Shown: in pieces, positions 20,508 to 61,744 of the stretch
Layout of the letters: every line of letters starts with the position of its first letter
How positions within the stretch are numbered: position 1 is the stretch's first letter
Source: Sumerlaeia bacterium
Lineage (GTDB): Bacteria; Sumerlaeota; Sumerlaeia; SLMS01; JAHLLQ01
Assembly (NCBI GenBank): GCA_040219255.1
Contig: JAVJSW010000068.1
Coordinates: 64,001 to 128,000 of the forward strand
DNA: 64,000 nucleotides
Direction: 5' to 3'
Made by a program: the position numbers and the translations under genes
The notes under the pieces: model-generated
What the model was told of the DNA's origin: nothing
Databases searched by the model: none
The model's input: only the letters and a program-made list of their open reading frames with translations

Positions 20508-21920
20508 ATGGCTCCTTCAATTTCCTCCTCAATTCTCCGTTCACTTACTCTGGGAGCCGGAGTCTTGGCTCTGCCGCTCCTGGCCGGCGCCCAGTCTTTC
20601 AGCAGCGGCTCCGATGGCTCCGACGGCGCGTTCAACCCGCAGTCGGACATGACCTTCGATGTGACACAGGCCGAGTATAATTTCACCACCATCGACATTC
20701 CGCAAGGCGTCACGGTGACGTTCAACCCGGACCTGACGAACAACTCTCCGGTGGTCTGGCTGGCCAGCGGCGACGTGACCATCGCGGGCACCATCAATGC
20801 CGACGGTGAGCAGGGCCACGATTGCGACGCCGCGTTCTTCACCCGGTCGGTCGGCGGACCCGGCGGCTGGAGCGGCGGCACCGGTGCGCAGGCGCCCATC
20901 GGGGATCCGGACGTGTCTCTGCAAGCCACCGCCGGCCACGGGCCCGGAGGCGGCCGGGAGGCACAAAGCGATTTCGACGGCGGCAACGGCGCGGGGCACC
21001 TCAACCCCGGCAATCGCGGTCAGGGATCCCAACCAAACGACCGCATCGCCAAAGCCTACGGCAACTCCTTCGGCGTTCCGCTCCAGGGCGGCAGCGGCGG
21101 CGGCGGCGGCGGCTTTCAAACCAACACCATCGTCAAAGGATCTGGTGGTGGCGCCGGCGGCGGCGCTCTTCTCATCGCCTCTTCTGGGGACATCGCCGTC
21201 AGCGGTTCCATCTCGGCCGACGGCGGAGAATCCGGCGGCCGCACCACCACAGCCGATTGCTACTTTGGCGGTGGAGGCAGCGGCGGCTTCATCCGCCTCG
21301 TCGCGAACGACATCACCGTCTCCGGTTCTCTCTCGGCACGGGGCGGTTCAGGCGTTCGTCAGGACAGCACCAGCCGCTCCGGCGGCGATGGCTCCCTGGG
21401 CCGCATCCGTCTCGACGCCTTCACCTTCGATCTGTCCGGCTCGTCCGTTCCCAACGCTTCCACCGGGCCGCCGGTGCTGCTCGATCTGCCCAGCGCCGCC
21501 CCGCGCCTGACCATTGCGACCATTGGCGGCAACGCGGTGCCCAGCGATCCGAGCGGAACAACCAGCAACCCGGACGTGACCATCATGTCCAGCGACCCCG
21601 TCGCCGTGGTGGTCAACGCGGCCAACATCCCCATCGGCACCACCGTCGATCTGCTCGTCTTCGCGGCCAATGGCCCGAGCGCCATTGTCACGACATCCGG
21701 TCTCACCGGCAGTGTCGCCAGTTCGACCGCCACCGCCAACGTCACCTTCCAGCCCGGCACGACCCAGATTGTCGCCACCGCCCAGTTCACCCCGTCCAAG
21801 AGCCTGACCGCCCCCAACGGCGAAGCGGTCGCCAGCGTCCGCATCTCCTCGACCGCCGATGGCCAGCAGGAAGTGGCCTACACGACCGTCTCCGGCGAAG
21901 TGATTTCCGTTTCGCAATAG
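20508..21920 (+). CDS. Secreted glycine-rich beta-solenoid-like protein
   Basis: AAAGGA SD; signal peptide; FSSGSDGSDGAF, GGPGG, YGN..PLQGGSGGGGG, GGGSGGFIRL, GRIRL. Confidence 0.8.
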   Translation: MAPSISSSILRSLTLGAGVLALPLLAGAQSFSSGSDGSDGAFNPQSDMTFDVTQAEYNFTTIDIPQGVTVTFNPDLTNNSPVVWLASGDVTIAGTINADGEQGHDCDAAFFTRSVGGPGGWSGGTGAQAPIGDPDVSLQATAGHGPGGGREAQSDFDGGNGAGHLNPGNRGQGSQPNDRIAKAYGNSFGVPLQGGSGGGGGGFQTNTIVKGSGGGAGGGALLIASSGDIAVSGSISADGGESGGRTTTADCYFGGGGSGGFIRLVANDITVSGSLSARGGSGVRQDSTSRSGGDGSLGRIRLDAFTFDLSGSSVPNASTGPPVLLDLPSAAPRLTIATIGGNAVPSDPSGTTSNPDVTIMSSDPVAVVVNAANIPIGTTVDLLVFAANGPSAIVTTSGLTGSVASSTATANVTFQPGTTQIVATAQFTPSKSLTAPNGEAVASVRISSTADGQQEVAYTTVSGEVISVSQ

Positions 21921-21955
21921 ACCCCGCGGCTTCCGCTTCCTCCCTTGTGTCCCCG

Positions 21956-21985
21956 GCCCGCTTCCTTCGCGAAGCGGGCTTTTTT
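21956..21985 (+). terminator. Rho-independent terminator
   Basis: gcccgcttc-cttcgc-gaagcgggc followed by tttttt. Confidence 0.85.
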
Positions 21986-22072
21986 GTACCCACCGCCCCT
22001 CCTTTTCACCGATTCTTGGCATCATATTCTCAAAGGTGCATTCCAAGTACCCTCGTGATAGGGAGGAAAACA

Positions 22073-23419
22073 ATGACCGCCAGGCAAGCAAGGGAATGTG
22101 TCCGGCGAGCGGCCCGGCCAATCACAGACAATCCCAAGGATTTCACGCCGCTTCTCGACTTGATCGGCGACGCGCGTTTCGTTTTGATCGGCGAGGAATC
22201 CCACGGTACGCAGGAGTTCTATCGAGACCGTGCCGAACTGACGAAGCTCCTCATTCGCGAGAAAGAGTTTTGCGCAGTCGCCGCCGAGGCCGATTGGCCC
22301 GACGCGCACGGCATCACGTCCTACGTCTCGGGAAAATCGAACGGCGGGGCGGCTGGGGCCGAGCGCAGCCTCTCGCGCTTCACCCGCTTTCCGCTTTGGA
22401 TGTGGCGAAACACCGAAGTTCTGAAGTTTGTCCGCTGGCTCCACGATCACAATGCGGCCTCTGACGAAGAACCGGTCGGTTTCTACGGGCTCGATCTCTA
22501 CAGCCTTTTTGGGTCGGTCAAGGCGGTGCTCGATTTCCTGGAGAGCACCAACCCCGAGGAAGCCCGCCGCGCCCGTGAGCGCTACGATTGTCTCGGGCTC
22601 CTATCCTCGGACGATGGCCAGGCCTACGGCTACCGCCTCACCGCCGGTCAGAACGGCGATTGCGAGGACGAAGTCCTGGAGCAACTGGTGGCCCTCCGCG
22701 AGCAGCAGGCCGCGTTCCTCAGCGCCGATGGCCGCCGCGCCCGGGACGACTTTTTTTACGCCCATCAAAACGCCCGCCTCGTCCACAGCGCCGAGCAATA
22801 CTATCGGGCCATGTTCAGCGGCAAAGAAAACACGTGGAACCTGCGCGACCGCCACATGGCGGAAACGCTCGAGGAACTCGCCAACCATCTCTCCCAGCAC
22901 CAACCCAACCCGAAGATCGTCGTCTGGGCGCATAATTCGCACATCGGCGACGCGCGCTTTACCGATATGGGCATGCGGCGCGGCCAGCTCAACCTCGGCC
23001 AATTGGCCCGCGAACGTTATAGAAGGGGAGCAATCCTGATCGGGTTCTCCACTTACTCGGGCACCGTGACGGCGGCCAGCCGCTGGGGCGGCGTGATGGA
23101 GCGCAAGACGGTGCGTCCCGCTCTTGAGGAAAGTTACGAAGCCCTCTTTCACGAAGCCCGCAGCGGCGAGTCGTTCCTATTGCCGCTCCATGCGAACCGC
23201 GAGATTTTCGAAGCCCTCCTCCCAGAGCGCCTCGAGCGCGCCATCGGCGTCATCTACCGCCCGGAAACCGAGCGCTTCAGCCATTACTTCGACGCCTCCC
23301 TCTCGCGACAGTTCGATGCCGTCATCCATCGCGACGTCACAAGCGCGGTGGAACCACTCGATCATTCACTACGATGGAACAAGGAGCGCGTGCCGGAAAC
23401 TTATCCTCACGGCCTCTAA
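22073..23419 (+). CDS. Erythromycin esterase family protein
   Basis: GGGAGG SD; IGEESHGTQEFY, EADWPDA, RFPLWMWRN, GLDLYSL, WNLRD.HM, WAHNSHIGDAR, RAIGVIYRP. Confidence 0.92.
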   Translation: MTARQARECVRRAARPITDNPKDFTPLLDLIGDARFVLIGEESHGTQEFYRDRAELTKLLIREKEFCAVAAEADWPDAHGITSYVSGKSNGGAAGAERSLSRFTRFPLWMWRNTEVLKFVRWLHDHNAASDEEPVGFYGLDLYSLFGSVKAVLDFLESTNPEEARRARERYDCLGLLSSDDGQAYGYRLTAGQNGDCEDEVLEQLVALREQQAAFLSADGRRARDDFFYAHQNARLVHSAEQYYRAMFSGKENTWNLRDRHMAETLEELANHLSQHQPNPKIVVWAHNSHIGDARFTDMGMRRGQLNLGQLARERYRRGAILIGFSTYSGTVTAASRWGGVMERKTVRPALEESYEALFHEARSGESFLLPLHANREIFEALLPERLERAIGVIYRPETERFSHYFDASLSRQFDAVIHRDVTSAVEPLDHSLRWNKERVPETYPHGL

Positions 23420-25509: not shown

Positions 25510-28500
25510 ATGTCTTGCGTCTTCATCAAGCGGCTCACCGCCGCCATGCTTCTTCTTTTGTCCATCGCGCCCGTTGCGGGTGTTGCCTCCTCGCCCGAGG
25601 TAGCCGTTCAGAAATCCCACCACGAAGACCACGTCATCATCGTGAAATTCCGCGACGGACTGAAGGTCCGCTTGCGGGCGGGCGAGCTAAAGGAGGAATC
25701 GGGCAAGGGCCTCAAGAGTGCGGCCGAAGCCAAGGTCTTCTCGCGCTACGACGCCTCGACCTGGAAACGGCTTCATCAGGCGCCGGAGAAGGAACTCGAT
25801 GGCCTGCGGGCCTTGGGCGCGAGCAAGTCGGGCAAGGCGCTTCCCGACTTGAACAACTACTATCATCTGTTCCTGGCGGACGGCGTTTCGGCGCAGGAAG
25901 CCGTGAACGACTTCCGTGGCTTGGAGAGCGTGGAAGGCGCCTGGTTCGTCAGCAAACCGCTGCCCTCGGCGACCCCCTTGGAATACACGAACCCCGACCC
26001 GGCCGATCCGGCGTTCACTTATCAGGGCTATCTCGATCCCGCCCCCGAGGGGATCGACGCGCGCTATGCGTTTGAACTGGGCATCAACGGGTCCTTCATG
26101 CGCGTGGCCGATGTGGAGTATGGCCTGAATCACAGCCACGAGGATTTCCCCTCCATCACGCTGATCCAGACGCCGAACCTGCCCCAGGGCTTCACCGACG
26201 ACCACGGCACCGCCGTCATGGGGATGCTGTCCGCCGATCCGTTCAACGACTTCGGCGTTTCCGGCATCGCCTCGTCGGCCGATTTCTTCTTCTCGCCGAG
26301 CTACTACACCGGCGTCGTCAACATCCCCGCGGCGATCACGAACATACTCGCGGCGGGCGGAGGCGGGTTCGAGGAGGGCGACATCATCCTCCTGGAAGCC
26401 CAATCTGCGGGGCCCAACTTCGACAGTGACCAGAACCCTCAATTCGGGCTGGTACCGGTGGAGTGGGAAAAACCCACCTACGACGCCATCATCACCGCCA
26501 CCGCCAGCGGCGTCATCGTCGTCGAAGCCGCCGCCAATGGCTCGCAAGATCTCGACAATTCCGATTACACCACCGGCAACGGCGGCCATTTTCCCTTTCA
26601 GATGGCCGGCAACACGCGGCTCAAGGACTCGGGCGCCATCATTGTGGGGGCTGGGCGGGGGCCTGCCTACGGCGACGATGCCCGCAGCGCCTATGGCTAT
26701 TCGAACCATGGCGGGCGCGTCGATGTGCAGGGCTGGGGTGGTCTCGTCGTGACCTCCGGTTACGGCTTGCTATACCCGGGTGAGGACGAACTGGACGCGG
26801 ACTCGGACAACGATCTGTGGTACACGGGGGAATTCGGTGGCACGTCCAGCGCCTCGCCCATGGTGGCGGGCGCCGCCGCCCTGATCCAGGACTTCCACAA
26901 GCGCTTCGACAACTACGCTGGCGAGGTCCTGTCGCCTTCCGAACTGCGCCAGCTCCTGATCGACACCGGTACGCCACAAACCGGCAGCAACGAAATCGGT
27001 CCGTTGCCGGATATAAGAGCGGCGTTCACTTCGCTGGCCGGGCCGGACCTGCCGCTCGCTCCGGTGATTACGCCAAACGGAGGTCCCTTCGATGCGCCCG
27101 CCCAAGTCACCATCGACTTCGCCCCCGCCGATACCAACGGCATCAATCTGCGCTACACGCTCAACGGCAGCGATCCCACGCCCGAGGACTTTCAATTCAT
27201 CCCGAGCCAGGGCGACCGGCTTTATCTGAACTATTCCGCCACCGTCAAAGCACGCGCCTTCAACGGTCTGGGCCTTCCGGGCCCGGTCACGACCGCCGAA
27301 TTCGTTTCGACCACGCCCCAGGTCGAGCCAGTTGCCATCCTGCCGGCCAATGGTGAGTTCACCGGTTCGGTGCAGGTTTCCCTCAGCACCGCCACCCCGG
27401 GCGCCACGATCCGCTATCGCACCGATGGACGGTCGCCGTCCTTCTTCTATCCCGGCACACTGTACAATGGGCCATTCACCATCGACGACGACGCCACGAT
27501 CACCGCCCGCGGCTATAACGACGGGTTCTACAAGAGCGACGTCAGCACAAAGGAATTCACCCGTTTGCCGGATCCGGAGGTCACTCTGCCCAGCCCGACG
27601 ATCTATCCAGGCACCGGAGAATTTGCCGGTGGTCTGACGTTCTACATGGGCACCACGATCCTCGGCGGGGAAATCCGCTTCACGATCGATGGGTCGGAGC
27701 CCACGGTTTCCTCCCCGGTTTTCTCCGACCCCATCACGATCCAGAGCCCCCTCGCCCGGACGACCGTCACCGCCAAGGCCAAAGTCTTCCTCGATGGCTA
27801 CAACCCCAGCGACACGGCGACGGCGGAATACACGATCTTCAACGAACTCGACCCGCCCATCATCGAAGTCTCGCCCGGTACGGAAGCCGTTGGCCAAGCC
27901 ACCATCACCATGACCAACCCGAACCCGAGCGGCCGCATCCACTACTCGCTCAGCGGCACCGTCCCCTACCTCTTCGATCCGGTCTACAGCGAGCCCATCG
28001 AGTACGACGACCCGGGAGGCCGGACCATCTATGCCGTGGTGTACGACTCCGGCGTCTTCAGCGACTTCGCCGAGGTCCGCATCACCGTCTACAGCGAAGA
28101 CGCCGATCAGGTGGAAGACCCCGTCCTGACGCCGCTCTTCGGCACGATCATCGGTGGCTCGGAAGTCACCATGACCTCTCTGACCCAGAACGCCATCATC
28201 CGCTATGAACTCGGCGACAATGAGGCGGCCAGCCCCGTGACGACTTCCAGCCCCATCTACAACGGCCCCATCGAACTCCTCGATCAGGATGGCGACCCCT
28301 TCACCAACGACTTCTACTTCTTCCGCGCCAAGGCCTTCCGCACGGGCTTCATTCCCAGCAACGAATTCTTCAAGACCTACTCGGTCAGCGATCCCCTCGG
28401 CACCATCGCCAACCCGCAGATCACCACCGATGATGGCCTCGACCCCGCCACCGGCAAGTACATCAACCCCATCGACCTTGAATTCATCATCAGCACCACA

Positions 28501-29685
28501 CCACCGACGACAGGCCTGCGAGTGTACACGACGCTCGACGGCTCGGATCCCATCGTCCCCGACCCGCCCGGCGTGGGCGACGAGAACGGCATCACCCTCG
28601 ACGGCAACGCGGTCGTGAAAGCCATCGGCTACCGCACCTTCTTTGGTCAGAGCACCAGCAGCGAACGGCCCTTCTTCTTTCAAACCGCCGCCCCGGTCTT
28701 CGATCCTCCGGGCACCAACCACGCGGGCTCGGTCGAAATCACCCTGACCAGCGCCACCAACGGCGCGGACATCCACTACACCCTCGACGGCACCGACCCC
28801 ACTCCATCCTCCACCGAATACACCGGGCCGTTCACGCTCGGCGTCGGCGACCACATCGTAAAGGCCCGCGCCTTCAACACGGACTACGACGACAGTTTCC
28901 TTGTCAGCCGTCTCTTCAAGGTCGCCGTTCCGCAAACCGGCCCCGCCATCACCCTGGCGCCGCAGGATCAAACAGTCGATGCGGGCCAGGACGCGGTTTT
29001 CACCGTCGAAGCCGACGGTAATCCGGAGCCGGCTTACCTGTGGGTGCGCGACGGATTCGTCCTGCCCCAGGAAACCGACGCGGAGCTGGTGGTCCCCGCC
29101 GCTCAGGTCCCCGACGCCGGCATCTACACCGTCTTCGTCAGCAACGCCGTCGATACCGTCAGCGCCTCCGCCGACCTGACGGTCAACGGTACCCCGACTC
29201 CCACGCCGACCCCGACGGATACCCCAACACCGACACCCACGGAAACCGCAACCCCGACCCCCACTCAGACGGCGACTCCCACGCCCACCGGCACGGCGAC
29301 TCTAACCCCGACCCCGACAGCAACCCCCACTCCGACGCCGACACCGACGCCGACCAGCACTCTCACTCCGACCGCGACGCCGACGCCGACGGGGACTGCC
29401 ACCCCCACAGGAACCCCCACACCAACAGGAACGCCGACGCCGACCGGGACCGCGACCCCAACGCCCACACCGACCACCACCCTGACTCCGACGCCAACCG
29501 CGACGCCAACGCCAACGCCGACACTGACCGCGACTGTCACACCGACGCCAACCCCAACCCCGACTCCATTGCCAGAGGGGGTCCTCCCCGCCTTGCTGGG
29601 TATGGAAAGCGTCGATCTGGAGAACGACGACGAGAACGGCGACTCGGTCGTCGATGTGGCCGATATTCTGGCCGGGGAAGGTTGA
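25510..29685 (+). CDS. Secreted S8 subtilisin-like protease with chitobiase/Fn3-associated repeats, Ig domain, PT tail and dockerin-like end
   Basis: Triad VADVE / DHGT / [13 protein letters not shown]; repeated I(R/H)YT.DG..P; C-terminal [12 protein letters not shown]. Confidence 0.9.
29190..29570 (+). repeat. Coding Pro/Thr low-complexity linker (TPTPT)n
   Basis: In frame within the S8 protease; degenerate codons. Confidence 0.85.
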
Positions 29686-30644: not shown

Positions 30645-31841
30645 ATGAAAGTTTCCCAGCGCGTTTCCAGCCTCACCCCCTCTCTGACGCTGGCGCTGAC
30701 GGCGAAGGCCAAGGCCATGAAGGCCGAGGGCATCGACGTCGTCTCCTTCGGTGCCGGCGAACCCGATTTCGACACGCCGGACTTCATCAAGGACGTCGCC
30801 ATCGAGGACCTGCGCGCGGGACGAACGAAATATACGGCCGCCAAGGGCGGGCCGGAAATCCTCAAAGGCGTCCAGGAAGCCCTCAAGCGCGACTACTCGC
30901 TCGAATACAAGGACACCGAAATCCTCGTGTCCGTTGGCGGCAAGCACACGCTCTATAACATCTTCATGGCCGTCGTCGATCCCGGCGACGAAGTCATCAT
31001 CCCCGCGCCCTACTGGCTCACCTATCCCGAGCAGGTCCGCGCCGCCGACGGCGTCCCGGTCTTCGTCGATTGCGGACCCGAGCAGAACTTCAAGCTGACC
31101 GCCGATCAGCTTGAAACCGCCATCACGGATAAGACCGTCGCCGTAGTCCTCAACAGCCCCAGCAATCCCACCGGCGCCGTCTATACCAAGGCCGAACTGC
31201 TGGCTCTCGGCAAGGTCCTGGAGAAGCACCCCAAGGTCCTCCTCATCAGCGACGACCTCTATCAGCTCCTCGTCTATTCGCCGGCCGAGTTCCACTCCCT
31301 GGTCACGCTCATGCCCAGCCTGCGCGAGCGCTCGATCATCGTGAACGGCTGGTCCAAGGCCTACAGCATGACCGGCTGGCGCCTCGGCTGGTGCGCCGGA
31401 CCGCAACCCCTCATCAAGGCCATGTCCACCCTCCAGAGCCACTCCACGTCCAACGTCACCACCTTCTGTCAACGCGCCGCCGCCGCCGCCATCACGAGCG
31501 ACCATGCCTTCCTGCGCGAGTGGAAGACCGAATTCGACGCCCGCCGCAAACTCATCGTGGACCTGTTGAACGCCATCCCCGGCGTCACCTGCTCCGCCCC
31601 CGAAGGCGCCTTCTACGCCTTCCCGGACATCTCCGGCCTCTACGGTAAGACTTACGGCGGCAAGGTGGTCAAGGATTCCATGGACTTCGCCGACGCCTGC
31701 CTCGAACAAGCCAAAGTCTCCGTCGTCCCCGGCCAGGTCTTCGGCGAAGACCGCTGCATCCGCCTGAGCTACGCCACCAGCCGCGCCAACATCGAAAAGG
31801 GCCTCGAACGCCTGAAAGACTTCGCGGCGTCGGGGAAGTAA
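30645..31841 (+). CDS. aspC: Class I PLP aminotransferase (aspartate aminotransferase)
   Basis: GAGEPDFDTP, NSPSNPTG, SKAYSMTGWRLG, GAFYAFP, RLSYA. Confidence 0.92.
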   Translation: MKVSQRVSSLTPSLTLALTAKAKAMKAEGIDVVSFGAGEPDFDTPDFIKDVAIEDLRAGRTKYTAAKGGPEILKGVQEALKRDYSLEYKDTEILVSVGGKHTLYNIFMAVVDPGDEVIIPAPYWLTYPEQVRAADGVPVFVDCGPEQNFKLTADQLETAITDKTVAVVLNSPSNPTGAVYTKAELLALGKVLEKHPKVLLISDDLYQLLVYSPAEFHSLVTLMPSLRERSIIVNGWSKAYSMTGWRLGWCAGPQPLIKAMSTLQSHSTSNVTTFCQRAAAAAITSDHAFLREWKTEFDARRKLIVDLLNAIPGVTCSAPEGAFYAFPDISGLYGKTYGGKVVKDSMDFADACLEQAKVSVVPGQVFGEDRCIRLSYATSRANIEKGLERLKDFAASGK

Positions 31842-31852
31842 AACCACACAAG

Positions 31853-31879
31853 GTAACACGGGCGTCCCGCCCGTGCTAC
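31853..31879. repeat. GTAG-type REP palindrome
   Basis: Minus strand gtagcacgggcg-gga-cgcccgtgttac; related to 32303, 35711 and 60509. Confidence 0.7.
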
Positions 31880-31930
31880 ACAACTGATTCCCCTTGATCT
31901 TGTTCAGGGGACGGAGCGACAGCAGCCTCC

Positions 31931-32290
31931 ATGATGACTCTGCGCCGCTTCCTCCCCATTCTGCTCCTCACCCTCGTCCTCGCCGGCTGCGGCACGTCGA
32001 ACAAGGGCACCGCGTCCTGGTACGCCGACCCCTTCACCGGCCGGCCCACGGCCAGCGGCGAGCGCTTCAACCCCAACGACCTGACCGCCGCCCACGCCCA
32101 TTACCCCTTCGGCACACGGCTCAAGGTCACGAACCTCGACAACGGCAAGAGCGTCATCGTTCGCGTCAACGACCGCTTTCCCGGCACCAAAGGCCGCGTC
32201 ATCGACCTCTCGAAAGCCGCCTTCGCCCGCATCGCCCACCCGGATCAGGGCCTGGCGCGGGTGCGGATTCAGGTGGTGTCGGGGCCGTAA
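31931..32290 (+). CDS. rlpA: RlpA-family septal lytic transglycosylase lipoprotein
   Basis: LAGC lipobox; ASWY, TASGE, TAAH, VRVNDR, RVIDLS. Confidence 0.92.
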   Translation: MMTLRRFLPILLLTLVLAGCGTSNKGTASWYADPFTGRPTASGERFNPNDLTAAHAHYPFGTRLKVTNLDNGKSVIVRVNDRFPGTKGRVIDLSKAAFARIAHPDQGLARVRIQVVSGP

Positions 32291-32302
32291 TTTCCTTACG
32301 GT

Positions 32303-32344
32303 GGGCGTGCCGCCCGTGGACCCGCCAGCCATAGCCCACGCCCG
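32303..32344 (+). repeat. Left half of REP doublet (degenerate REP plus flank)
   Basis: 37/42 identical to 60516-60556. Confidence 0.75.
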
Positions 32345-32361
32345 GGTGGCGAAAGCTTCCG

Positions 32362-33666
32362 ATGACCGTTCGCAGCGCCCATAGGAGCCACCTCCACGAA
32401 TACGCCTACGACGGCTTTGGCCGGCGGGCCGAGAAGACCGTGGACTCGGGCGGCGCGAACGAGGAGCACACGCTCTTCCTCTATGACGGCCACCACGTCA
32501 TCGAAGAGCGCGACGGCGCCACGGGCAGTCTGCTCGCCAGCTACGTCCACGGCCTCGGCATCGACAACGTGCTGACGATGCAGCGCGATGTGGATGGCAA
32601 CGGCACGGCGGAGGACTACTTCTACGTGCAGGACGACATGGGCAGTCCGGTGCTCCTGGTGGACGCTGCGGGGGCCATCGTCGAACGCTATGACTACGTC
32701 GATTACGGCCGGGCCATCGTGATGAACCCGGGCGGGGTCGAGACGGGCACCGAGTCGCAGTTCGGCAACCCGTACCTCTTCGTCGGCCGGCGGTGGGACG
32801 GCGAACTGGGCATGTACTGGAACCGCACGCGTCATCTCCATCCGCTGCTGGGCCGCTTCACGACGCGCGATCCGCTGGGGATTTGGGGGGACGCGTCGGC
32901 CTGGGGGAATGGGTACACCTACGCGGGGAATAATCCGTGGACGTATTTTGATCCGTTCGGATTGGAGAAGGAGGAGGTGGATAAGAGTAGGGGGCTGCAT
33001 TGGGATGAGCCATTTAATGACGCTATGGAAAGACTTCGAGAGCACTCTACTTACTATGGCAGTATTATTGAGCACTTGGAAAACAGTGAAAACAAGCATT
33101 CCATCCACAGTCGTGGGAGACGGCGGGGGCTATTCAATAAACCAAATGACGACATAGGAATTCATGTGCATGGCGAGGGTGGAGGTGACGGAAGTGGGAC
33201 ATCTTCGCAGATATTCATACCTAAAAAGTACTTGGAGGGTTTGTCTGAAGATGAGCTAGCACTTGTCTTGGGAAATGAGTTGTACCATGCCTTTGAAGCA
33301 GACCTTGGGGTGTTGACAGAGTCCACCTTGTCCAACCGAGTGGACATTATTGATAAGGGAAGATCTAAGTACGGCGGTGCAACTGGTACTAGGGGTGGTC
33401 ATAAGAATGAGACTGGAAACGTTTATCATTGGGGTGAGTTTAGATCGGATATAGCAGAGCAGGTGGTAAGAAGGGATCTGAAGATTGATAAAGAACTGCT
33501 GCAAAAGCCGTTTATTTTCCCAACATATCCCCATTACACAAGAGAGCAAAGGGCTCTCACCAACGTATGGGACGATGACAGATCTCAGCTTGCGACCGTT
33601 ACAAACGATCCGGCGCCAAATATCGATTCGCTGGCGTCCGTTGACCCCAATATCAAAGAGGATTAA
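32362..33666 (+). CDS. Orphan (5'-truncated) Rhs core with C-terminal toxin domain
   Basis: YAYDGFGRR, YDYVDYG, NPYLFVGRRWD, GRFTTRDPLG, YTYAGNNP..DPFGL; GC falls after DPFGL; lacks the N-terminal YD array. Confidence 0.85.
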   Translation: MTVRSAHRSHLHEYAYDGFGRRAEKTVDSGGANEEHTLFLYDGHHVIEERDGATGSLLASYVHGLGIDNVLTMQRDVDGNGTAEDYFYVQDDMGSPVLLVDAAGAIVERYDYVDYGRAIVMNPGGVETGTESQFGNPYLFVGRRWDGELGMYWNRTRHLHPLLGRFTTRDPLGIWGDASAWGNGYTYAGNNPWTYFDPFGLEKEEVDKSRGLHWDEPFNDAMERLREHSTYYGSIIEHLENSENKHSIHSRGRRRGLFNKPNDDIGIHVHGEGGGDGSGTSSQIFIPKKYLEGLSEDELALVLGNELYHAFEADLGVLTESTLSNRVDIIDKGRSKYGGATGTRGGHKNETGNVYHWGEFRSDIAEQVVRRDLKIDKELLQKPFIFPTYPHYTREQRALTNVWDDDRSQLATVTNDPAPNIDSLASVDPNIKED

Positions 33667-33670
33667 ATAA

Positions 33671-34246
33671 ATGTTGACAAAGCGCAATGAGAGCACTCTA
33701 AACTTTGGGTGGTTGAATTGGTCTAAGCTACAGGTGATTCTTGTCGCTGCGGGAGCAGCCGTCCTTATTTCTTGTGAGGCTCGTCGCGATTATCAACTTG
33801 TGAATGTTGGAGAATACAATCCATATGTAAGCAACAGAGTTGAAACGGATCGCATGGCAGTAGATCGGCTCGGCTTGGGGGAGACGCTGGACAAGATTGA
33901 TCTAAACAAGAAGTATTTGTACGTCTTCGAAAACTATGGCTATGGTTGGTCTTTCTCGGGCAAGGTGTCTCTTGAAAGCCTTGGTTTTGAACTTGGCCAG
34001 AGGGAGGAATTCTTGATTGAATTGAGAAATGATTCTGTTTTGATTGCAAGTGATACGCCTTCTGATTACGTTGATATGTACGTTGCCGTGGCTGTGTTTG
34101 GGGATGACTACCTAGTTGTAAATTGGCAGTCACCTTGTAGCATGCTCGATGAGTCCGCGAAATATGCGCACGACAGCATGAGATACAGCTTTCCTGTTAA
34201 GATACTGGAGCTTCTCAACAATAATTTGCGTGCAGACTGTGACTAG
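33671..34246 (+). CDS. Putative immunity lipoprotein 1
   Basis: Starts 4 nt after the Rhs stop; low GC; VLISC lipobox-like; similar to 34554-35141. Confidence 0.65.
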   Translation: MLTKRNESTLNFGWLNWSKLQVILVAAGAAVLISCEARRDYQLVNVGEYNPYVSNRVETDRMAVDRLGLGETLDKIDLNKKYLYVFENYGYGWSFSGKVSLESLGFELGQREEFLIELRNDSVLIASDTPSDYVDMYVAVAVFGDDYLVVNWQSPCSMLDESAKYAHDSMRYSFPVKILELLNNNLRADCD

Positions 34247-34368
34247 CTATGGGCCGAGACTTATTGCGAGATTCTCAAGTTCTTCTAAATGGAAGTGGCT
34301 ACGAATGACAAAACATTTTCTATTCGCACTGTTAATCGGAACGGCGGCCGACCATGTCATCGCCGCCG

Positions 34369-34464
34369 ACTTCCACTACCTCCTGGAAGACCACGCCGAC
34401 CCCTCCGCTCCCGTCATCGAGCGGCGGGGGCGGGGGACGGCAAGCGGTGAGGTGTTGCATCCGG
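34369..34464 (+). repeat. 96-bp direct repeat copy 1 (gene-fragment derived)
   Basis: 93/96 identical to 35300-35395; encodes FHYLLEDHADPSAPVIERRGRGTASGEVLHP. Confidence 0.9.
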
Positions 34465-34553
34465 TCGAGAGGGATCGCCAAGCCAGAATAAGACGCACTA
34501 TTCGCGGCTTCACGAGCCACTTTACAATCCCTTGCCTGCGGAGTAAATCAACA

Positions 34554-35141
34554 ATGCCAACCTTTCGTTTCTTAGCCTGCACTTTGGCAATCACACTATA
34601 CCTTTTGGGATGTGCCGCTCCTAATCAAGTGCGACTTGTGAGGATTGGTCCATACAACCTGGGGTTCGACAAACGGGTGGAGGAATTGCAATTAAGTGAT
34701 TTTGAGAAAGAGTTCCTGAACGAGAACTCTGATAGAGAATATGAAAAATCAAATCATGTAGCTGTCTATCAAAGAATTTCTGGAAACATTATCTACTCAG
34801 GGACCATAAATTTTAAAGAGCTTCGAATGACCGAGGAATATCTTCGAGAACAACTTGAGGCAGTGCGCGACGAGGCGGTCTACTCTGAGCCAGATGAAAG
34901 CCAGTGGAAGAACCAGCATCTATATATTGCCATTTTCAAAAAACGGGTCAAAGGCGAGATATATGTCTTGATTTGGCATGAGCCGTGCAAGTTGTTATTA
35001 GGAGAAGTAAGTTACGTTCATTGGACCATGGATGTGAGTCGATCGCAATGGCTTCTTGAAGATCTGGACAAAATAATTCCCGTCATGTGTCCCAGTGACC
35101 ATGTAGATCCCGAGGATGGTCGTGATGCGAAAGTCAAATAA
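34554..35141 (+). CDS. Putative immunity lipoprotein 2 (paralogue of 33671-34246)
   Basis: GGAG SD; LLGC lipobox; shares LV.(V/I)G.YN, RVE, SG, W..PC, Y.H..M..S and LE.L with immunity 1. Confidence 0.7.
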   Translation: MPTFRFLACTLAITLYLLGCAAPNQVRLVRIGPYNLGFDKRVEELQLSDFEKEFLNENSDREYEKSNHVAVYQRISGNIIYSGTINFKELRMTEEYLREQLEAVRDEAVYSEPDESQWKNQHLYIAIFKKRVKGEIYVLIWHEPCKLLLGEVSYVHWTMDVSRSQWLLEDLDKIIPVMCPSDHVDPEDGRDAKVK

Positions 35142-35299
35142 AATCTCGACGAGAGTATATAATAGAAAATGTCTTGGTCTGAACGTGATTGCCTCCGATA
35201 TGTTGGCAATTTCGGTCCATTTGCGGCTGTATGCGCAAGGTTTCCAATGGACGATATTTTTTTTCATACTTGTCGTATGCTCATCACTTCAAGCCGTCA

Positions 35300-35691
35300 A
35301 CTTCCACTACCTCCTGGAAGACCACGCCGACCCCTCCGCTCCCGTGATCGAGCGGCGGGGGCGGGGGACGGCGAGCGGTGAGGTCTTGCATCCGGCGGGT
35401 TTGATTCTGCCGGCGGACCGGCTGTTTCGCGAGTTCGTGCTGGATGCGGAGACGCTTCAGGTCGGGTACGCCGACTTTGTCTCGCCAGCCGTCGGCCTCA
35501 GCATGGAGCTGCCGACGTTCGATCTGGGTCCGGACCCGTGGGGCGACGCCGATGGCGACGGCCTCGGGGGCATGGGCGAGTACATCGTGGGCACCGATCC
35601 TTCGCAGTGGGATACCGACGGAGAGGGTGTGTCCGATGCGGCCGAGGTGCGCCAAGGCACGAACCCGACGGATGGCATGGGCAACCTTTAG
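35300..35691 (+). pseudogene. Fragment of a large surface protein with thrombospondin-3-like Ca-binding repeats; begins with 96-bp repeat copy 2
   Basis: DADGDGL...GTDPSQWDTDGEGVSDAAEV..GTNP; GC-rich; no convincing start; ends at the REP flank. Confidence 0.6.
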
Positions 35692-35734
35692 GGAGAGAAA
35701 GCGCCGCCGGACATGGGCGAGACGCCCAGGCTAC
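35691..35734. repeat. Right half of REP doublet (flank plus inverted GTAG REP)
   Basis: gggagagaaagcgccgccggac is 20/22 identical to 60609-60630; minus strand gtagcctgggcgtctcgcccatgt at 35711-35734. Confidence 0.75.
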
Positions 35735-35739
35735 ACGGA

Positions 35740-37509
35740 TTAGTCAAAATCCAGATCGTCAAAGCCCGAGTCGAACACGTCCGAGTCGCTTTCCTGGCGT
35801 TTGAGGACGATCAGGGTGAAGTCGTCGAACTGGTCGGCTTCGCCGCGGTGGCGGACGCAGGACTGGTAGATCGCGTTGCGGATTTCCTCGGCGCGTTTTT
35901 GCCGGTTTTCCCGCAGAATGGTGAAGAGCCGTTCCTCGCCAAAGATTTCGCCCTGGGTGTTTTGAATGTCCGTGACGCCGTCGGTCGAGAGCAGCAGCAC
36001 GCCGCCTTTGGGGAAATCGATGGTTTCCGCTTCGTAGTCCACTTCCGCGCTGATTCCCAGGAACAGGCCGCCCTTGTCCAGGAACGTCATCGTCCCATCG
36101 GGCTTGAGCAGCACCGGATGGCAATGGCCGGCGTTGACGTACTGTAATTGGTCGTCTTCGGGTTTCAGGATCGTGTACACCATCGTGACATACATATCGT
36201 TCGTCACGTCGCGATAGACCATGCGGTTCATGCGGGCGACGGCTTCGACGATGTTGGTGCTGGGGCGTTCGCTTTCGCCCTGGAGGTAACTGCGCGTGGT
36301 CGCCGTCAGGATGGCCGCCGGGACGCCCTTGCCCGACACGTCGGCCACGGCGAAGACGAAGCGGTCGTCGGGCAGTTCGAGGAAGTCGTAGTAATCGCCG
36401 CCCACCTGCTTGGCCGGCAGCGACATCGCCGACACATCGTATCCGGGCACGTTGGGGTACACCTTGGGCAGCAGGTTCATCTGGATCGTGCGGGCGATTT
36501 CCATCTCGCGGGCCAGTTTGTACTGCTCGACCAGTTGGCTGTGCAGCCGCGCGTTGATGATACCGAGCGCCGCCTGGTTCGTCAGACCCGTCAGCAGCTC
36601 CAGCTCCTCGCGGCTGTAGGGCATCATCCGCGTCCGGGTGTCCACATAGACCACGCCGAGCGCCTCGTCCTGATACACGATGGGGGCCACCATGGCGGTG
36701 CGGATGCGATTGAGGATGATGGACTCGCTGCTGGCGAAGCGCTGGTCCTGGGCCGCGTCCGACACCAGCATCGACACCCGGTCGGCCATACACTTATCCA
36801 CGATGGAGCTGGACAGCTTGACTTCCTGATCTTCGCCATCGCGGGCCCGTACCACGCGCGGTTCCAGCTCGTTGGTTTCCGGATTCTTGATGAGCAGATA
36901 GGAGATGTCCGGCTTCAGGATTTCCTGAATCAGCTCGACCACCTTCTCCAACACCTGGTCCAGGTCCAGGAGCGAGCGCATCGCCTCGCTGATCTGGTAG
37001 AGGATTTCCAGGCGCTTGGACGCGTCTTTGAGCGCCATGCCGTGATTGGTGTCGATATTGACGGTCTGGGCGGGTCGGACGCCGGCGCGCACTTCGCCGC
37101 GGGTCGATCCCCACTGGTTTTCGTCCACCACCTTGTAGCTTTGGTTCGGCCGGCCCACGGGCGGCGTGCCCATGAAGGTCTGGCCCGAGGACACGCTGTC
37201 CATCGCGTCGGCGATGCTGTCCTCTTCGAAGAGCAGCGTGGTGTCGCCGATCTGCAAAATGTCGCCGCTGCGCAACTGAGTGGGGCCGCCGATGGTCGCG
37301 CCGTTGAGCTGCGAGCCGTTCTTGCTGCCCAGATCCCGCATGAAATAGTGCTTGTCTTCCTCGTACACCTCGGCGTGGTTGCGGCTCATGCGCCGGTCCA
37401 CAACTTGCAGTTCGTTGTTTACGCTTCGGCCCACGCTGATGCGCCGGCCAGCTCCGAGCTGGATCACGCGGCCTTGTTGCTCGCCGGATTGGATGATCAG
37501 TTTGGGCAT
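35740..37509 (-). CDS. FHA-GAF-SpoIIE (PP2C) phosphatase
   Basis: FHA VGRS..MSRNH..DLGSKNGS; GAF; VGGDYYD, ADVSGKG, NAGH, TDG, DDFT. Confidence 0.93.
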   Translation of the reverse strand: MPKLIIQSGEQQGRVIQLGAGRRISVGRSVNNELQVVDRRMSRNHAEVYEEDKHYFMRDLGSKNGSQLNGATIGGPTQLRSGDILQIGDTTLLFEEDSIADAMDSVSSGQTFMGTPPVGRPNQSYKVVDENQWGSTRGEVRAGVRPAQTVNIDTNHGMALKDASKRLEILYQISEAMRSLLDLDQVLEKVVELIQEILKPDISYLLIKNPETNELEPRVVRARDGEDQEVKLSSSIVDKCMADRVSMLVSDAAQDQRFASSESIILNRIRTAMVAPIVYQDEALGVVYVDTRTRMMPYSREELELLTGLTNQAALGIINARLHSQLVEQYKLAREMEIARTIQMNLLPKVYPNVPGYDVSAMSLPAKQVGGDYYDFLELPDDRFVFAVADVSGKGVPAAILTATTRSYLQGESERPSTNIVEAVARMNRMVYRDVTNDMYVTMVYTILKPEDDQLQYVNAGHCHPVLLKPDGTMTFLDKGGLFLGISAEVDYEAETIDFPKGGVLLLSTDGVTDIQNTQGEIFGEERLFTILRENRQKRAEEIRNAIYQSCVRHRGEADQFDDFTLIVLKRQESDSDVFDSGFDDLDFD

Positions 37510-44983: not shown

Positions 44984-45060
44984 TATCTTTTCTAATTGCG
45001 TCACACCCTCCCCTCTCCCTACCTTCCACCGTCCCTGGGGCACGACTCTTGATCGGCCCT

Positions 45061-45080
45061 AGGTAGGATTTTACCTACCT
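45061..45080. repeat. GTAG-containing palindrome upstream of RAYT
   Basis: aggtagg-atttta-cctacct; second hairpin ccgtcc-cc-ggacgg at about 45135-45148. Confidence 0.45.
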
Positions 45081-45234
45081 CGGTGGAGGATTTCCCTCGG
45101 AACGTGGCAAAGGTGCATCCTTCAACCCCCCGCTCCGTCCCCGGACGGTGTACTTGGGAAGATCAAAGAAAGGCTTGGAAGGGGAAGACAGATGATATCG
45201 CTTCGAATCCAAATCCGCGAAGGCGGTGAATCTC

Positions 45235-45921
45235 ATGGCTAGAACGGCACGCGTCATTGCGGTGCGGTATCCGCACCACGTGTTGCAGCGCGGGAATTTT
45301 GGCGCGCCGGTGTTCATGAATGACGAAGATCGTTCGACTTATCTTGAGCGCCTGCGGACTTGTGCCAAGGAAAACAAACTCGAGGTGCTGGCTTATTGCC
45401 TCATGCAGAACCACATCCACATCGTGGCTGTGCCCAAGCAGGAGGAAAGCTTGGCGATGGCCTTGCGCCGCACCCACAGCTTCTACAGCCGCTACCTCAA
45501 CTCCCGGCTCGACCGCGTGGGGCACGTCTGGCAGAACCGCTTCTACTCCTGTCCCGTCGACAAAGACAAGGTCTGGCCGCTCGTCAAGTACGTCGAGCAG
45601 AACCCAGTCCGCGCCGGACTCGTCAAGGACCCGTGGGAGTACCGCTGGAGCAGCGCTCCGGCCCACTGCGGGCTTACCGACGATCCGCTCCTCGCCAAGA
45701 ACTGGCCTCCCAAGGGAGCCGTCGAGGACTGGAAGGCGTTCTTGAAGACCGACTTGCCCGAGGACGAAGTCGAAGCGGTACGCCGCTCGACCATCCGGGG
45801 TCAGGTGTGGGGCGGCAAAGCGTTCATCGAACGCCTCGAGAAGAAACTGGAACGTCCCGTGGGGCCTCGCCGCATCGGCCGGCCGCCCAAAGCGGACAAG
45901 AGCAAGCGCCCGAGTCCTTGA
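45235..45921 (+). mobile_element. REP-associated tyrosine transposase (RAYT, HUH Y1 family)
   Basis: PHHVLQRGN, YCLMQNHIH (HUH), GHVWQNRF, YVEQNPVRAGLV, YRWSS. Confidence 0.9.
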
Positions 45922-45970
45922 CCGGTTCGGCCGCTCCGGGTCCTCCCGGGGACTCTGGCACTGACTGACA

Positions 45971-46005
45971 AACAGCCCTGGAACCGTTCCGGTTCCAGGG
46001 CTGTT
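45971..46005. terminator. Perfect 16-bp hairpin between convergent genes
   Basis: aacagccctggaaccg-ttc-cggttccagggctgtt. Confidence 0.65.
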
Positions 46006-46047
46006 CTCATATCCCGCGGCGTCTTTCGCAGCGCTTCGCCGCCGGGG

Positions 46048-59452: not shown

Positions 59453-59638
59453 GAGGGGGTTCCTCCTGGGGCTTAAGGGACAGTCAATGTGTAAACGGTA
59501 GTTCACCTTCTCCCGCTCCGTCAAGTGAAAACCCGAGCGCTCCAAAGCTTTGTTCGTGTCAATATCACACTTTATCCTTGCGCTCTCGTCCCCCCTCCCC
59601 TACCGTCGTGCCATCGCTCACCGAACGGGAGGCCCGCC

Positions 59639-60442
59639 ATGACACCCGCCGCCGACACGATGCTCCTCATCATCGACCCGCAACGCGATTTCTGCCACCC
59701 GCGAGGCAGCCTTTTCGTCCCCGGCGCGCCCGAAGACCTGGAGCGCCTCACCGCCCTTCTCGACCGCCGCGGCGCGGACATCGACACGGTCGCCGTGACG
59801 CTCGACAGCCACCAACTCCTCGACGTCGGACACCCGCTCTTCTGGCGCGACCCCCTCGGCAATCGGCCCGAGCCCTTCACCACCATCCGCCACGAAGACG
59901 TGGCCGAAGGACGCTGGACCCCCTACGATCCGGCCCTGCGCCCCCGCATGCTGGAGTACACGCGGCTTCTGAAGACTCACGGCCGCTACGACCTGACGAT
60001 CTGGCCGCCCCACTGCCTGATCGGCACGGAAGGCCACGCCATCGCCGAACCGCTGCAGGGCGCCCTGCGCCGCTGGGTCGAGGCCCGCCAGCGCCCCATC
60101 ACCTTCATCCCCAAAGGCGCCAACATCCACACCGAGCATTACAGTGCCATCCAGGCCGACGTGCCCGATCCAGCGGATCCGGCGACGGGGCGGAACACGG
60201 CGCTGCTGGAGGCGATCCGCGCGGCGGGATCCGTCGCCATCGCGGGTCAGGCGCTGAGCCACTGCGTCGCCAACACGGTGCGCGACATCGTGGGGGCCTT
60301 GCCCGCCGAAGAGCATGGCAAGCTGCACCTGCTCCGCGACACGACAAGCCCGGTTCCGGGCTTCGACGCGCAGGCGGAATGGTTCCTGGGCGAGGCGGCC
60401 GCCGCCGGGGTCCGAGTCGTGACGGCGGCCGATTGGCCCTAA
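59639..60442 (+). CDS. Nicotinamidase-like isochorismatase-family hydrolase
   Basis: GGAGG SD; IIDPQRDF, LDSH, WPPHC, KG, AGQALSHCV. Confidence 0.88.
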   Translation: MTPAADTMLLIIDPQRDFCHPRGSLFVPGAPEDLERLTALLDRRGADIDTVAVTLDSHQLLDVGHPLFWRDPLGNRPEPFTTIRHEDVAEGRWTPYDPALRPRMLEYTRLLKTHGRYDLTIWPPHCLIGTEGHAIAEPLQGALRRWVEARQRPITFIPKGANIHTEHYSAIQADVPDPADPATGRNTALLEAIRAAGSVAIAGQALSHCVANTVRDIVGALPAEEHGKLHLLRDTTSPVPGFDAQAEWFLGEAAAAGVRVVTAADWP

Positions 60443-60508
60443 GGGGGCACAAGGCTGGAGAGCCCTCGCTACATAACCTTGTTTTTGCGCGACTTATGCG
60501 TTGGAAAG

Positions 60509-60652
60509 GTCGCACGGGCGTCTCGCCCGTGACCCGCCAGCCTTAGCCGACGCCCGTGAGCCGCTGCATCGAGGAGGCTTTCGGGAGAGCGGGAGGAAGG
60601 CTGGCTCTGGGAGGAAAAGCGCCGCCGGACGCGGCTCGGAAGACCGTCCAAC
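60509..60652. repeat. Cargo-free REP doublet (REPIN-like) between convergent genes
   Basis: Left gtcgcacgggcg-tct-cgcccgtg; right inverted gttggacggtcttccgagccgcgtcc; internal blocks match 32303-32344 and 35691-35712. Confidence 0.7.
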
Positions 60653-60658
60653 ACAGAG

Positions 60659-61744
60659 TTACGGCGTCGAATCCGCCGCCTGGGCCGCCGCTCCCGCCAG
60701 TTCGCCCTTCAGGTGCTCGAATGGGCCGACGATGGCGCCGGCTTCCACGGCGGCGCCTTCGACCACGGCGTGGCGGACGCGGACGCAGTGTTCGAGGGTG
60801 GCGTCGATCAGGGTGGCGTGGGGGCCGATGATGCAGCCTTCGCCGACGACCGATTGGCCCCGGATGATAGTAAAGGGCTGAAGAATCGTCTCGCGCCCGA
60901 TCACCGCCGTGCGATCGACGTAGGTGGTTTCCGGGTCGATGACGGTGACGCCGCTGTCCATGAGGGCGTTGAGCACGCGGCGCCGCAGGATGGCTTCGGC
61001 GTTGGCCAATTCCTGGCGGCTGTTGACGCCGACGACTTCGCTGGGGTCGGGGCAGACGCTGGCTTCCACGCCCCGGTGATCGCGGCGCAGGACTTTGACG
61101 GTGTCGGTCAGGTAGTACTCGCCCTGGACGTTGTCGTTGTCGAGGTGATCGAGGGCGGTGAGGAGGGCCTGCGCGTCGAAAGCGTAAATGCCGGTGTTGA
61201 TTTCCTTGATGGCGCGCTGGGCTTCGGTGGCGTCCTTGTGTTCGACGATGCCGCGGACGGCGCCGTATTCGTCGCGCTGGATGCGGCCATAGCCGGTCGG
61301 GTCCTGGAGATGGGTGGTCAGGACGGCGCAGGCGCAGGTCATTTCGCGGCGGCGCTCGACCAGAGCGCTCAGCGTTTCCGTGCGCAGCAGCGGCCCATCG
61401 CCGTTCAGCACCAGCACATCCACCCCGTCCGGGTTAGCGGCCACGAGATCGCGCAACGGCCCGGCCGCCATCATGACGGCGTGGCCGGTGCCAAGTTGCT
61501 TCTCCTGGAGGACGCAGGTGGCGCGGGCGCCGATGTGGGCCTCGACGTCGTCGGCGCGGTGGCCGACGACGACAAAGGCACCCTGGGGCCCGAGGGGCTC
61601 GACGGCGTCGAGCACGCAATCGATCATGGCCCGGCCGCCAACCTGGTGCAGCACCTTGGGCAGTTCGGTTTTCATCCGCGAGCCCTTGCCGGCGGCGAGG
61701 ATCACGACGGCGAGCTTGCGATTGGACGGGGGGATCTGAGTCAT
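60659..61744 (-). CDS. glmU: GlmU-like UDP-GlcNAc pyrophosphorylase with short left-handed beta-helix (361 aa)
   Basis: LAAGKGSRMK..PKVLH, QLGTGHA, GYGRI, EINTG, EYYLTD, GVNSR; ends early in the hexapeptide region. Confidence 0.85.
   Translation of the reverse strand: MTQIPPSNRKLAVVILAAGKGSRMKTELPKVLHQVGGRAMIDCVLDAVEPLGPQGAFVVVGHRADDVEAHIGARATCVLQEKQLGTGHAVMMAAGPLRDLVAANPDGVDVLVLNGDGPLLRTETLSALVERRREMTCACAVLTTHLQDPTGYGRIQRDEYGAVRGIVEHKDATEAQRAIKEINTGIYAFDAQALLTALDHLDNDNVQGEYYLTDTVKVLRRDHRGVEASVCPDPSEVVGVNSRQELANAEAILRRRVLNALMDSGVTVIDPETTYVDRTAVIGRETILQPFTIIRGQSVVGEGCIIGPHATLIDATLEHCVRVRHAVVEGAAVEAGAIVGPFEHLKGELAGAAAQAADSTP

Follow-up and report, generated by a model that had tools for sequence, protein, structure and literature searches.

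Apparent remnant of an Rhs-type toxin/immunity array between the halves of a palindrome doublet in a Sumerlaeia bacterium

We analysed a 64,000-nucleotide (nt) stretch of a Sumerlaeia bacterium contig (JAVJSW010000068.1, positions 64,001 to 128,000; assembly GCA_040219255.1), hereafter the window, which has a GC content of 64.2% and contains no N. Our subject is an island between an rlpA-like gene and a convergent FHA-GAF-PP2C phosphatase gene, where parts of an Rhs-type toxin/immunity system are enclosed by a left block (L) and a right block (R). The same two blocks, in identical order and orientation, belong to an uninterrupted palindrome doublet at 60.5 kb. In our reading, at least three tandem genes of an Rhs-type array once stood here, and the island is what erosion has left of them. 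The account that we tentatively favour, at a little under an even chance, is that a passive, hairpin-prone doublet between convergent genes was split by, or left around, this decayed array, which would now act mainly as orphan immunity. The initial annotation of this DNA had proposed that such doublets capture or carry polymorphic-toxin cargo, or act as insertion hotspots for it. The insertion hotspot proved the more economical half of that proposal, whereas movement as a mobile element was not supported, the Y1 transposase gene of the window being unlinked, the island hairpins weak and the palindrome family limited to four clear copies in the 64 kb. The features are listed in Table 1.

The L block at 32303-32344 aligned with 60516-60556 at 37 of 42 identical columns with one gap, and the R block at 35691-35712 aligned with 60609-60630 at 20 of 22. 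A BLAST search of the remaining window sequence with the doublet (60490-60665) recovered the two blocks at E values of 8.3e-8 and 0.004, respectively. L and R are separated by 52 bp at 60.5 kb (60557-60608) and by 3346 bp at the island (32345-35690). A palindrome at 31850-31875 (E 0.001) ranked between the two blocks, and these three were the best non-self matches; the next three, all at E 0.19, were an inverted palindrome core at 35715-35727 and two unrelated sequences. As a chance control, we simulated 100 windows of the same dinucleotide make-up with a first-order Markov model. The L score was attained in none of them (maximum 33.4 vs 46.8 bits), the R score in one, and colinear L and R matches within 5 kb in none. 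Random sequence does not explain the border matches, and the observation is real. The border matches, the spacings, the 144-bp span of the uninterrupted doublet (60509-60652) and the right island palindrome at 35711-35734 lie where the initial annotation had placed them, and the gene calls bore out its statement that both sites lie between convergent genes.

Both the L tail and the R tail occur in exactly two copies in the window and are paired every time. The longest exact runs common to the two loci are 12 nt in L and 15 nt in R, and the best-conserved pieces are the inner tails, not the palindromes. Alignment scores across loci (L with L, R with R) were 57-66, compared with 21-23 for L against the reverse complement of R within a locus. 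Since the first likeness exceeds the second, both loci come from one doublet type whose halves were already asymmetric, and alignment and BLAST agree that the cargo is nested between the halves of a doublet type that exists uninterrupted at 60.5 kb. That copy, with ~110 nt between its palindromes, folded as DNA into one imperfect hairpin (-43 kcal/mol, z -2.94, reached in 1 of 200 shuffles), whose outer stem is formed by GTTGGA with TCCAAC and in which the spacer sequence AAGGCTGGC pairs with the L tail. An apparent compensatory change between the L tail and the spacer arm, seen in two sequences, was given no weight. We also considered an integron attC site; the reading was dropped because the GTTRRR-like/YYYAAC-like end order of the doublet is the reverse of that of attC, because there is no integrase and because halves, not whole sites, flank the cargo.

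Table 1. Coordinates of the island, its flanking genes, the uninterrupted doublet and related features in the window
Feature	Coordinates	Strand	Evidence and remarks
Best-formed family palindrome, GTAAC-ACGGGCG-TCC-CGCCCGT-GCTAC	31849..31883	.	Covariance model on both strands, E 7.5e-8 and 2.4e-7
rlpA-like DPBB lytic transglycosylase gene, left flank of island	31931..32290	+	Pfam DPBB_1 E 1.5e-25; GC3 0.91
Left half of doublet: degenerate palindrome GGGCG-TGC-CGCCC and L tail GACCCGCCAGCCATAGCCCACGCCCG	32292..32344	+	Covariance model E 3.2e-5; alignment, BLAST
Junction zone of uncertain origin	32345..32394	+	Three readings
C-terminal ~190 residues of Rhs core	32395..32964	+	TIGR03696 52.4 bits (cutoff 32.5), E 5.8e-14; GC3 0.87
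Variable toxin tip (CT1)	32965..33666	+	GC 0.465, GC3 0.48
Immunity-like gene 1, predicted lipoprotein	33671..34246	+	Lipobox LISC at 33764-33775; no Pfam or NCBIfam family
Copy A, broken 5' start of secreted protein X: own signal peptide and 33 mature residues (FHYLLEDHADPS...VLHP)	34305..34464	+	
Possible last ~27 codons of a lost second toxin tip	34465..34553	+	Three-frame translation
Immunity-like gene 2, predicted lipoprotein	34554..35141	+	LLGC at 34602-34613; paralog of gene 1; GC 0.43
Copy B of protein X: signal peptide, lineage-specific N-domain, two TSP3 repeats	35200..35691	+	Pfam TSP3_bac E 4.5e-5, below cutoff; GC3 0.82
Right half of doublet: R tail GGGAGAGAAAGCGCCGCCGGAC and inverted palindrome ending CTAC	35691..35738	+	Covariance model match on minus strand, E 8.4e-7
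FHA-GAF-PP2C (SpoIIE) phosphatase gene, right flank, convergent with rlpA	35740..37509	-	Pfam SpoIIE 2.4e-50, FHA 7e-16, GAF 3.7e-15
Y1 (HUH) transposase-like gene	45235..45921	+	Pfam Y1_Tnp PF01797 E 4.7e-13
Uninterrupted doublet: palindrome, L tail, 52-bp spacer, R tail, degenerate inverted palindrome	60505..60656	+	Covariance model E 2.7e-7
Genes around the 60.5-kb doublet, convergent	59525-60442; 60659-61915	+; -	

Profiles and alignments supported the earlier description of the cargo as a 5'-truncated Rhs core, two immunity-like genes and a surface-protein fragment. They add a toxin tip to the core and show the fragment to be part of a secreted protein with TSP3 repeats. The Rhs open reading frame (ORF) has its first ATG at 32362, and the core ends in PWTYFDPFGL (32935-32964) with the PxxxxDPxGL motif intact. 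The core has 95 long relatives, the best of which, at 46-51% identity, are named as proteins of Phycisphaerae/Planctomycetota metagenome-assembled genomes. The alignments to these relatives end at about nt 32965 and start near 32395, or in a few cases at 32347; in the frame from 32335, most alignments begin at residue 21-23 and a few at residue 4-5. As the aligned stretch corresponds to only residues ~1620-1810 of Rhs proteins of ~2000 aa, about 1600 N-terminal residues are missing. The island therefore has the orphan-module trait of a core that ends in PxxxxDPxGL and lacks the N-terminal delivery part. No other Rhs/YD gene was found among the large ORFs of the window, and no full-length rhs within 28 kb; neither the island nor those ORFs contain a secretion system, an integrase or a transposase. 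Pfam and NCBIfam searches likewise revealed no transposase or integrase in the cargo, which also has no terminal inverted repeat. Inside an Rhs YD repeat, 76 nt 3' of the L tail, lies an inverted near-copy of that tail (15/18; 32413-32430, minus strand). Among 930 windows scanned for a partner of the L tail, this Rhs-internal near-copy, and not the right end of the island, was predicted to form the most stable DNA duplex with the L half (-32.9 kcal/mol; mean -14.0, standard deviation 5.3). It may be a chance likeness or a trace of how the Rhs gene broke.

At the end of the Rhs core, GC falls from 0.65 to 0.47 and GC at third codon positions (GC3) from 0.87 to 0.48. The tip that follows gave no Pfam match at E<=10, no PDB sequence relative and no relative of near length except itself. 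In the ESM Atlas, it yielded a Peptidase_M91-like zincin (feature score 0.94; TM 0.52-0.55 to M91 clusters), and its putative metal-binding helix reads NELYH (33274-33288), not HExxH. With no match to the family profile and with this departure from HExxH, the M91-like zincin is a lead and not an assignment; the orphan tip may be inactive, or it may use other metal ligands. Immunity-like gene 1 starts 4 nt past the toxin stop, and a variable low-GC tip followed after 4 nt by a putative immunity gene fits an orphan module. The products of immunity-like genes 1 and 2 are paralogous (24% identity over 168 aa, E 2e-11). No known family was found for either, and the ESM Atlas returned nothing for gene 1, with scores below 0.8. 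Judged by position and lipobox, the two small lipoprotein genes would confer immunity. Between copy A of protein X and immunity-like gene 2, 89 nt (34465-34553) run in a separate frame that closes with TAA 8 nt upstream of gene 2.

The 5' starts of the secreted protein X lie downstream of each immunity-like gene. They are linked by a direct repeat of 103 nt (34362-34464 and 35293-35395), which is 95% identical, has sharp edges and begins at the predicted signal-peptide cleavage site of X. The signal peptides are low in GC and differ between copies A and B, and the repeat segment of copy A has a GC of 0.72 amid low-GC surroundings. Copy A stops after 33 mature residues, and copy B is apparently cut a few codons past a TSP3 repeat; the latter is probably truncated, because the R block starts within its stop codon. 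The search with X gave 12298 matches, dominated by TSP3 repeats. Among the 150 matches listed, two were specific relatives, P0128 and P0160, both short metagenomic fragments, the second of which diverges after nt 35643. No relative of the X N-domain was found among proteins of 336-2000 aa; longer proteins were not searched. When P0128 was compared with 35266-35595 of the window, its first 105 residues matched X and its last 56 matched the reverse strand of the same stretch, so the P0128 contig folds back on itself, either as an assembly artefact or as a real inverted duplication in the relative. A 10-mer, CATGGGCGAG, is found both in the coding part of X (35571-35580) and in the right palindrome (35712-35721), and GGCATGGGC recurs at 35674-35682.

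Strongly low GC is seen nowhere in the window but at the island, which is a compositional mosaic: the conserved modules have a host-like GC3 of 0.82-0.87 and the variable cassettes a GC3 of 0.44-0.59. Its left junction can be read in three ways. The zone 32345-32394 could hold the last residues of the Rhs frame (GWRKL...), the spacer of the doublet, or a degenerate start of the R block, GGGTGGCGAAAGC. Reading it as an R start implies an imperfect direct repeat around the cargo, and such a repeat is present at the cargo edges (32344-32356 vs 35691-35702, 10 of 13 columns), its right copy being the opening 12 nt of R. The sharpness of the junction does not discriminate between insertion and trimming, because the start of the cargo is itself defined by the end of the L-R similarity.

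Alignment of the palindromes in the window gave a short, GC-rich family consensus, GTAGCACGGGCG-NNN-CGCCCGTG. The sequence GGGCGNNNCGCCC occurs six times in the window against 0.68 expected, and a count of six was reached in 0 of 100 shuffles; four sites are intergenic (31860, 32303, 35715 and 60516) and two lie within ORFs. We built a covariance model from the family copies and ran it unfiltered over the entire window. Only the four intergenic sites matched at E<0.01, which puts the palindrome in 4 of ~26 intergenic spacers; three of the four are inside 3.9 kb around the island. One further candidate was weak (E 0.93); it lies at 60442-60476 on the minus strand, directly 3' of the stop of the 59525-60442 gene and ~30 nt before the doublet. 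The best-formed palindrome (31849-31883), between an aminotransferase gene and rlpA, has neither an L nor an R tail and folded as DNA with a z of -4.34 (0 of 200 shuffles). The two island palindromes, with stems of 5-6 bp, folded no better than shuffles (z 0.03 for the left, -0.87 for the right), and the half hairpins at 60.5 kb were intermediate (-2.01 and -1.79). The inverted arrangement at the island is reflected in model matches on the plus strand at 32292-32326 and on the minus strand at 35704-35738; the right palindrome at 60.5 kb is degenerate, was missed by the model and was seen by alignment only. The initial annotation had called these sequences repetitive extragenic palindromic (REP) elements. 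Of the island palindromes, the right one carries the GTAG/CTAC signature and the left one does not, and both hairpins are weak.

Beyond the window, a 19-20-nt L-block pattern gave 91 matches in 91 contigs of a collection of genome contigs, with no true family member among them. A palindrome arm stood upstream in 0 of 91 and the likeness ended at ~20-47 nt, and for these reasons we regard the matches as chance. A distant-mode search of a plasmid collection with 31800-35800 returned 17 records, and all 10 of those listed fell within the rlpA part of the query. No Rfam family was found in the window.

On the account that we favour, a tandem Rhs toxin/immunity array would have been reduced to the 3.3 kb that now separate rlpA from the PP2C gene, and the two broken 5' starts of X probably opened the next genes of that array. 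There are two routes by which this state might have arisen. Foreign or ectopic DNA may have entered a hairpin-prone intergenic palindrome, or a resident array may have been deleted back to the parts adjoining the flanking genes; either route would leave half a doublet on each side. The doublet would thus be a passive site, not a vehicle, and we infer that it is older than the cargo and that no transposase was involved. At present the locus would most likely serve as orphan immunity, with two intact lipoprotein genes protecting against Rhs toxins of kin, and the promoterless toxin tip would become usable only after recombination with a full-length rhs gene elsewhere. A split doublet is favoured by the colinear, asymmetric halves and by the absence of unpaired L or R tails from the window. 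A passive site is favoured by the lack of a recombinase in the cargo, the lack of a family palindrome beside the Y1 gene and the shuffle-level folding of the island hairpins. A decayed array is favoured by the truncated Rhs core, the 103-nt repeat of two broken X starts, the paralogous immunity-like genes and the GC3 mosaic. Two papers offer precedents, one documenting REPs as insertion targets (PMC1525189) and the other proposing DNA insertion into REPINs (REP doublets) as a source of REP singlets (PMC3116915).

Several points weigh against this account. It is built on one interrupted and one uninterrupted copy, and if L and R units were abundant they could pair by chance. In an analysis that covered the window and one pattern scan of other contigs, no second cargo-bearing copy, excision product or empty orthologous site came to light, so the doublet need not predate the array. 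The 52-bp spacer at 60.5 kb has no clear counterpart at the island; a simple insertion would have retained it. One-step insertion of a fragment with both ends inside coding sequences would also be odd, and the trimming route needs at least three separate deletions. The imperfect direct repeat of ~12 nt (10/13) might represent a target duplication and would then point to active insertion. Finally, the evidence for an immunity role of the lipoprotein genes consists of their position and lipobox.

It is also conceivable, though unlikely, that there never was a split doublet. L-type and R-type modules, each a palindrome plus tail, would then settle singly at gene 3' ends, for example as terminators or mRNA-stabilising hairpins, and convergent genes would make them face each other. 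Consistent with this, both loci lie between convergent genes with the halves 1-65 nt from a stop codon, the palindrome at 31849-31883 stands alone without tails, and the spacer of the 60.5-kb copy is missing at the island. If both types were common, the order L then R would be expected in about 1 in 4 of the possible pairings. However, no free L or R was found in the 64 kb, and each of the two L tails (2/2) has an R tail after it on its own strand. At 60.5 kb, the halves fold together through the outer stem and the pairing of L tail with spacer (z -2.94), as would fit a single unit, and L is only weakly alike to the reverse complement of R, which argues against one unit type used twice.

A more active alternative depends on the Y1 gene, which the initial annotation had named as a REP-associated tyrosine transposase (RAYT). 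The gene does encode a Y1 transposase homologue, with HIH and YVEQN, which we take to be the HUH and catalytic Tyr motifs, retained. The more specific assignment did not hold to the same degree: on NCBIfam NF047646 (REP-associated transposase) the protein scored 77 bits against a cutoff of 80, a near miss, and the flanks (44984-45234 and 45922-46047) contained no family palindrome and no repeat common to other spacers. No PDB sequence relative of the protein was found. None of the 16-mers from the flanks recurs in the window except within the gene's own downstream palindrome, a perfect 16-bp stem at 45971-46005 directly 3' of the gene, which itself has no other copy there. A GGTAGG...CCTACC hairpin at ~45063-45080, upstream of the gene, does not recur in the window either. 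Flanking REPINs are presented as a core feature of RAYTs in one study (10.1101/119735). This comparison covered the single Y1 gene of the window, and a link between it and the doublet is not supported by the available evidence.

That alternative treats L and R as hairpins terminating a non-autonomous element, similar to a REPIN or to members of IS200/IS605. A Y1 transposase acting in trans would move whatever DNA they enclose; the 3.4-kb unit would be the form with cargo, and the 145-bp doublet a form that is empty or has lost its interior. We consider it improbable. In its favour, L and R, unchanged in order and orientation, enclose 52 bp at one locus and 3346 bp at the other, the imperfect ~12-nt direct repeat lies at the cargo edges, and a Y1 gene with intact HUH and Tyr motifs is located 9.5 kb away. 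TTAC, presumably the target of the insertion sequence (IS) IS608, stands immediately 5' of the left palindrome. Non-autonomous IS200/IS605 elements that are mobilised by Y1 enzymes and carry kb-scale cargo are described in one report (PMC4810608). Against these points stand the absence of a family palindrome from either flank of the Y1 gene, the score of its product below the NCBIfam cutoff (77 vs 80), the weak end hairpins of the island and the degenerate right palindrome at 60.5 kb. Moreover, the cargo is broken at both ends and bears internal deletion scars, which indicates decay in place and not a maintained passenger, and a full-text literature search on REPIN, RAYT and cargo retrieved no description of such cargo. 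A bolder version is a 'macro-REPIN' of a Planctomycetota-like lineage, that is, a Y1-mobilised asymmetric L/R element with a 145-bp empty form and a kb form ferrying Rhs tips and immunity genes between intergenic sites; we hold this to be quite improbable.

That the contig was misjoined at the repeated blocks and the nesting is unreal has the smallest chance of all: repeats are classic misjoin sites and the related metagenomic fragment P0128 comes from a fold-back contig, but sequence identity between the copies is unbroken for no more than 12 nt in L and 15 nt in R, which makes misassembly unlikely because such runs are under usual assembler k-mer sizes. In addition, 5 of 42 positions in L and 2 of 22 in R differ, two misjoins would be required (one at L, one at R), and composition is smooth across both junctions with host-like GC3 on both sides. 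The remaining probability we assign to explanations that we have not thought of.

Some further features of the window were recorded. ARAGORN called a 96-nt tRNA-Gly(GCC) at 31687-31782 on the minus strand, inside the aminotransferase ORF; the call is probably false, since Rfam at the gathering threshold finds no tRNA in the window. A Pro/Thr-rich tandem repeat with units of 6-24 nt (29171-29578) lies in the C-terminal part of a 1391-aa surface protein with subtilase and chitobiase-C domains (25510-29685). An 865-aa protein (20822-23419) contains an erythromycin-esterase-type domain (Pfam 4.5e-122). We treat it as a member of that family and do not call it a resistance gene, because it scored 54 bits against NCBIfam EreA/EreB cutoffs of 750.

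If the doublet is passive, the locus would be a further example of REP-type palindromes marking sites at which accessory DNA is gained and lost. It would also illustrate the decay of an Rhs array into stand-alone immunity genes away from a full-length rhs gene, which is useful for annotation and unsurprising. If its ends were truly mobile, these would be the first REPIN-like elements shown to carry genes, and they would represent a new intragenomic route for the movement of toxin/immunity cassettes. Because empty and filled copies lie 25 kb apart on one contig, the question of mobility can be tested directly.

The doublet resembles REPINs, as characterised in Bertels and Rainey (2011; PMC3116915) and PMC3337134, in having two short, GC-rich inverted palindromes with a spacer in extragenic DNA. 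The copy at 60.5 kb folds as one long imperfect hairpin, and one palindrome starts with GTAG. The doublet differs from REPINs in that four clear palindromes were found in 64 kb, a scope at which high copy number was not seen, and in that its best-conserved parts are the inner tails and its left and right halves are not copies of each other. In addition, no transposase gene of the window is flanked by the palindromes of the doublet, and the 'spacer' of the island copy is 3.3 kb long between halves that fold at shuffle level. To our knowledge, REPIN-like elements have so far been described as cargo-free and vertically inherited, and kb-scale cargo mobilised by Y1 enzymes in REPINs was not described in the texts retrieved by our literature search.

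Non-autonomous IS200/IS605 elements (PATEs, ISC), as reported in PMC4810608 and PMC3119063, share with the island the subterminal hairpins and the absence of terminal inverted repeats, and combine these with mobilisation by Y1 in trans and genes of kb scale. Such elements reportedly carry tnpB/iscB and have termini that match those of an autonomous element within their own genome; neither applies to the island. Another parallel is the use of REPs as IS targets, described by Tobes and Pareja (2006, PMC1525189), where DNA likewise interrupts an intergenic REP-type element and leaves parts of it on each side. Each such IS encodes a transposase of its own and has a defined cutting position, whereas the insert in the island has no recombinase and has both ends in broken genes. 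REP sequences reportedly also serve as insertion targets in studies of ISPpu9/IS110.

For the cargo, the comparison is with orphan Rhs/CdiA modules, which in Poole et al. (2011, PMC3150448) and Koskiniemi et al. (2014, PMC3967940) reportedly show the same plan as the island: a 5'-truncated core, a variable low-GC tip and a small immunity gene 3' of it, several in a row. Known orphans reportedly lie directly 3' of a full-length rhs gene, whereas none is present within 28 kb of the island. At the island, moreover, each immunity-like gene is followed by the broken 5' start of a secreted protein, and doublet halves stand on either side of the remnant as a whole.

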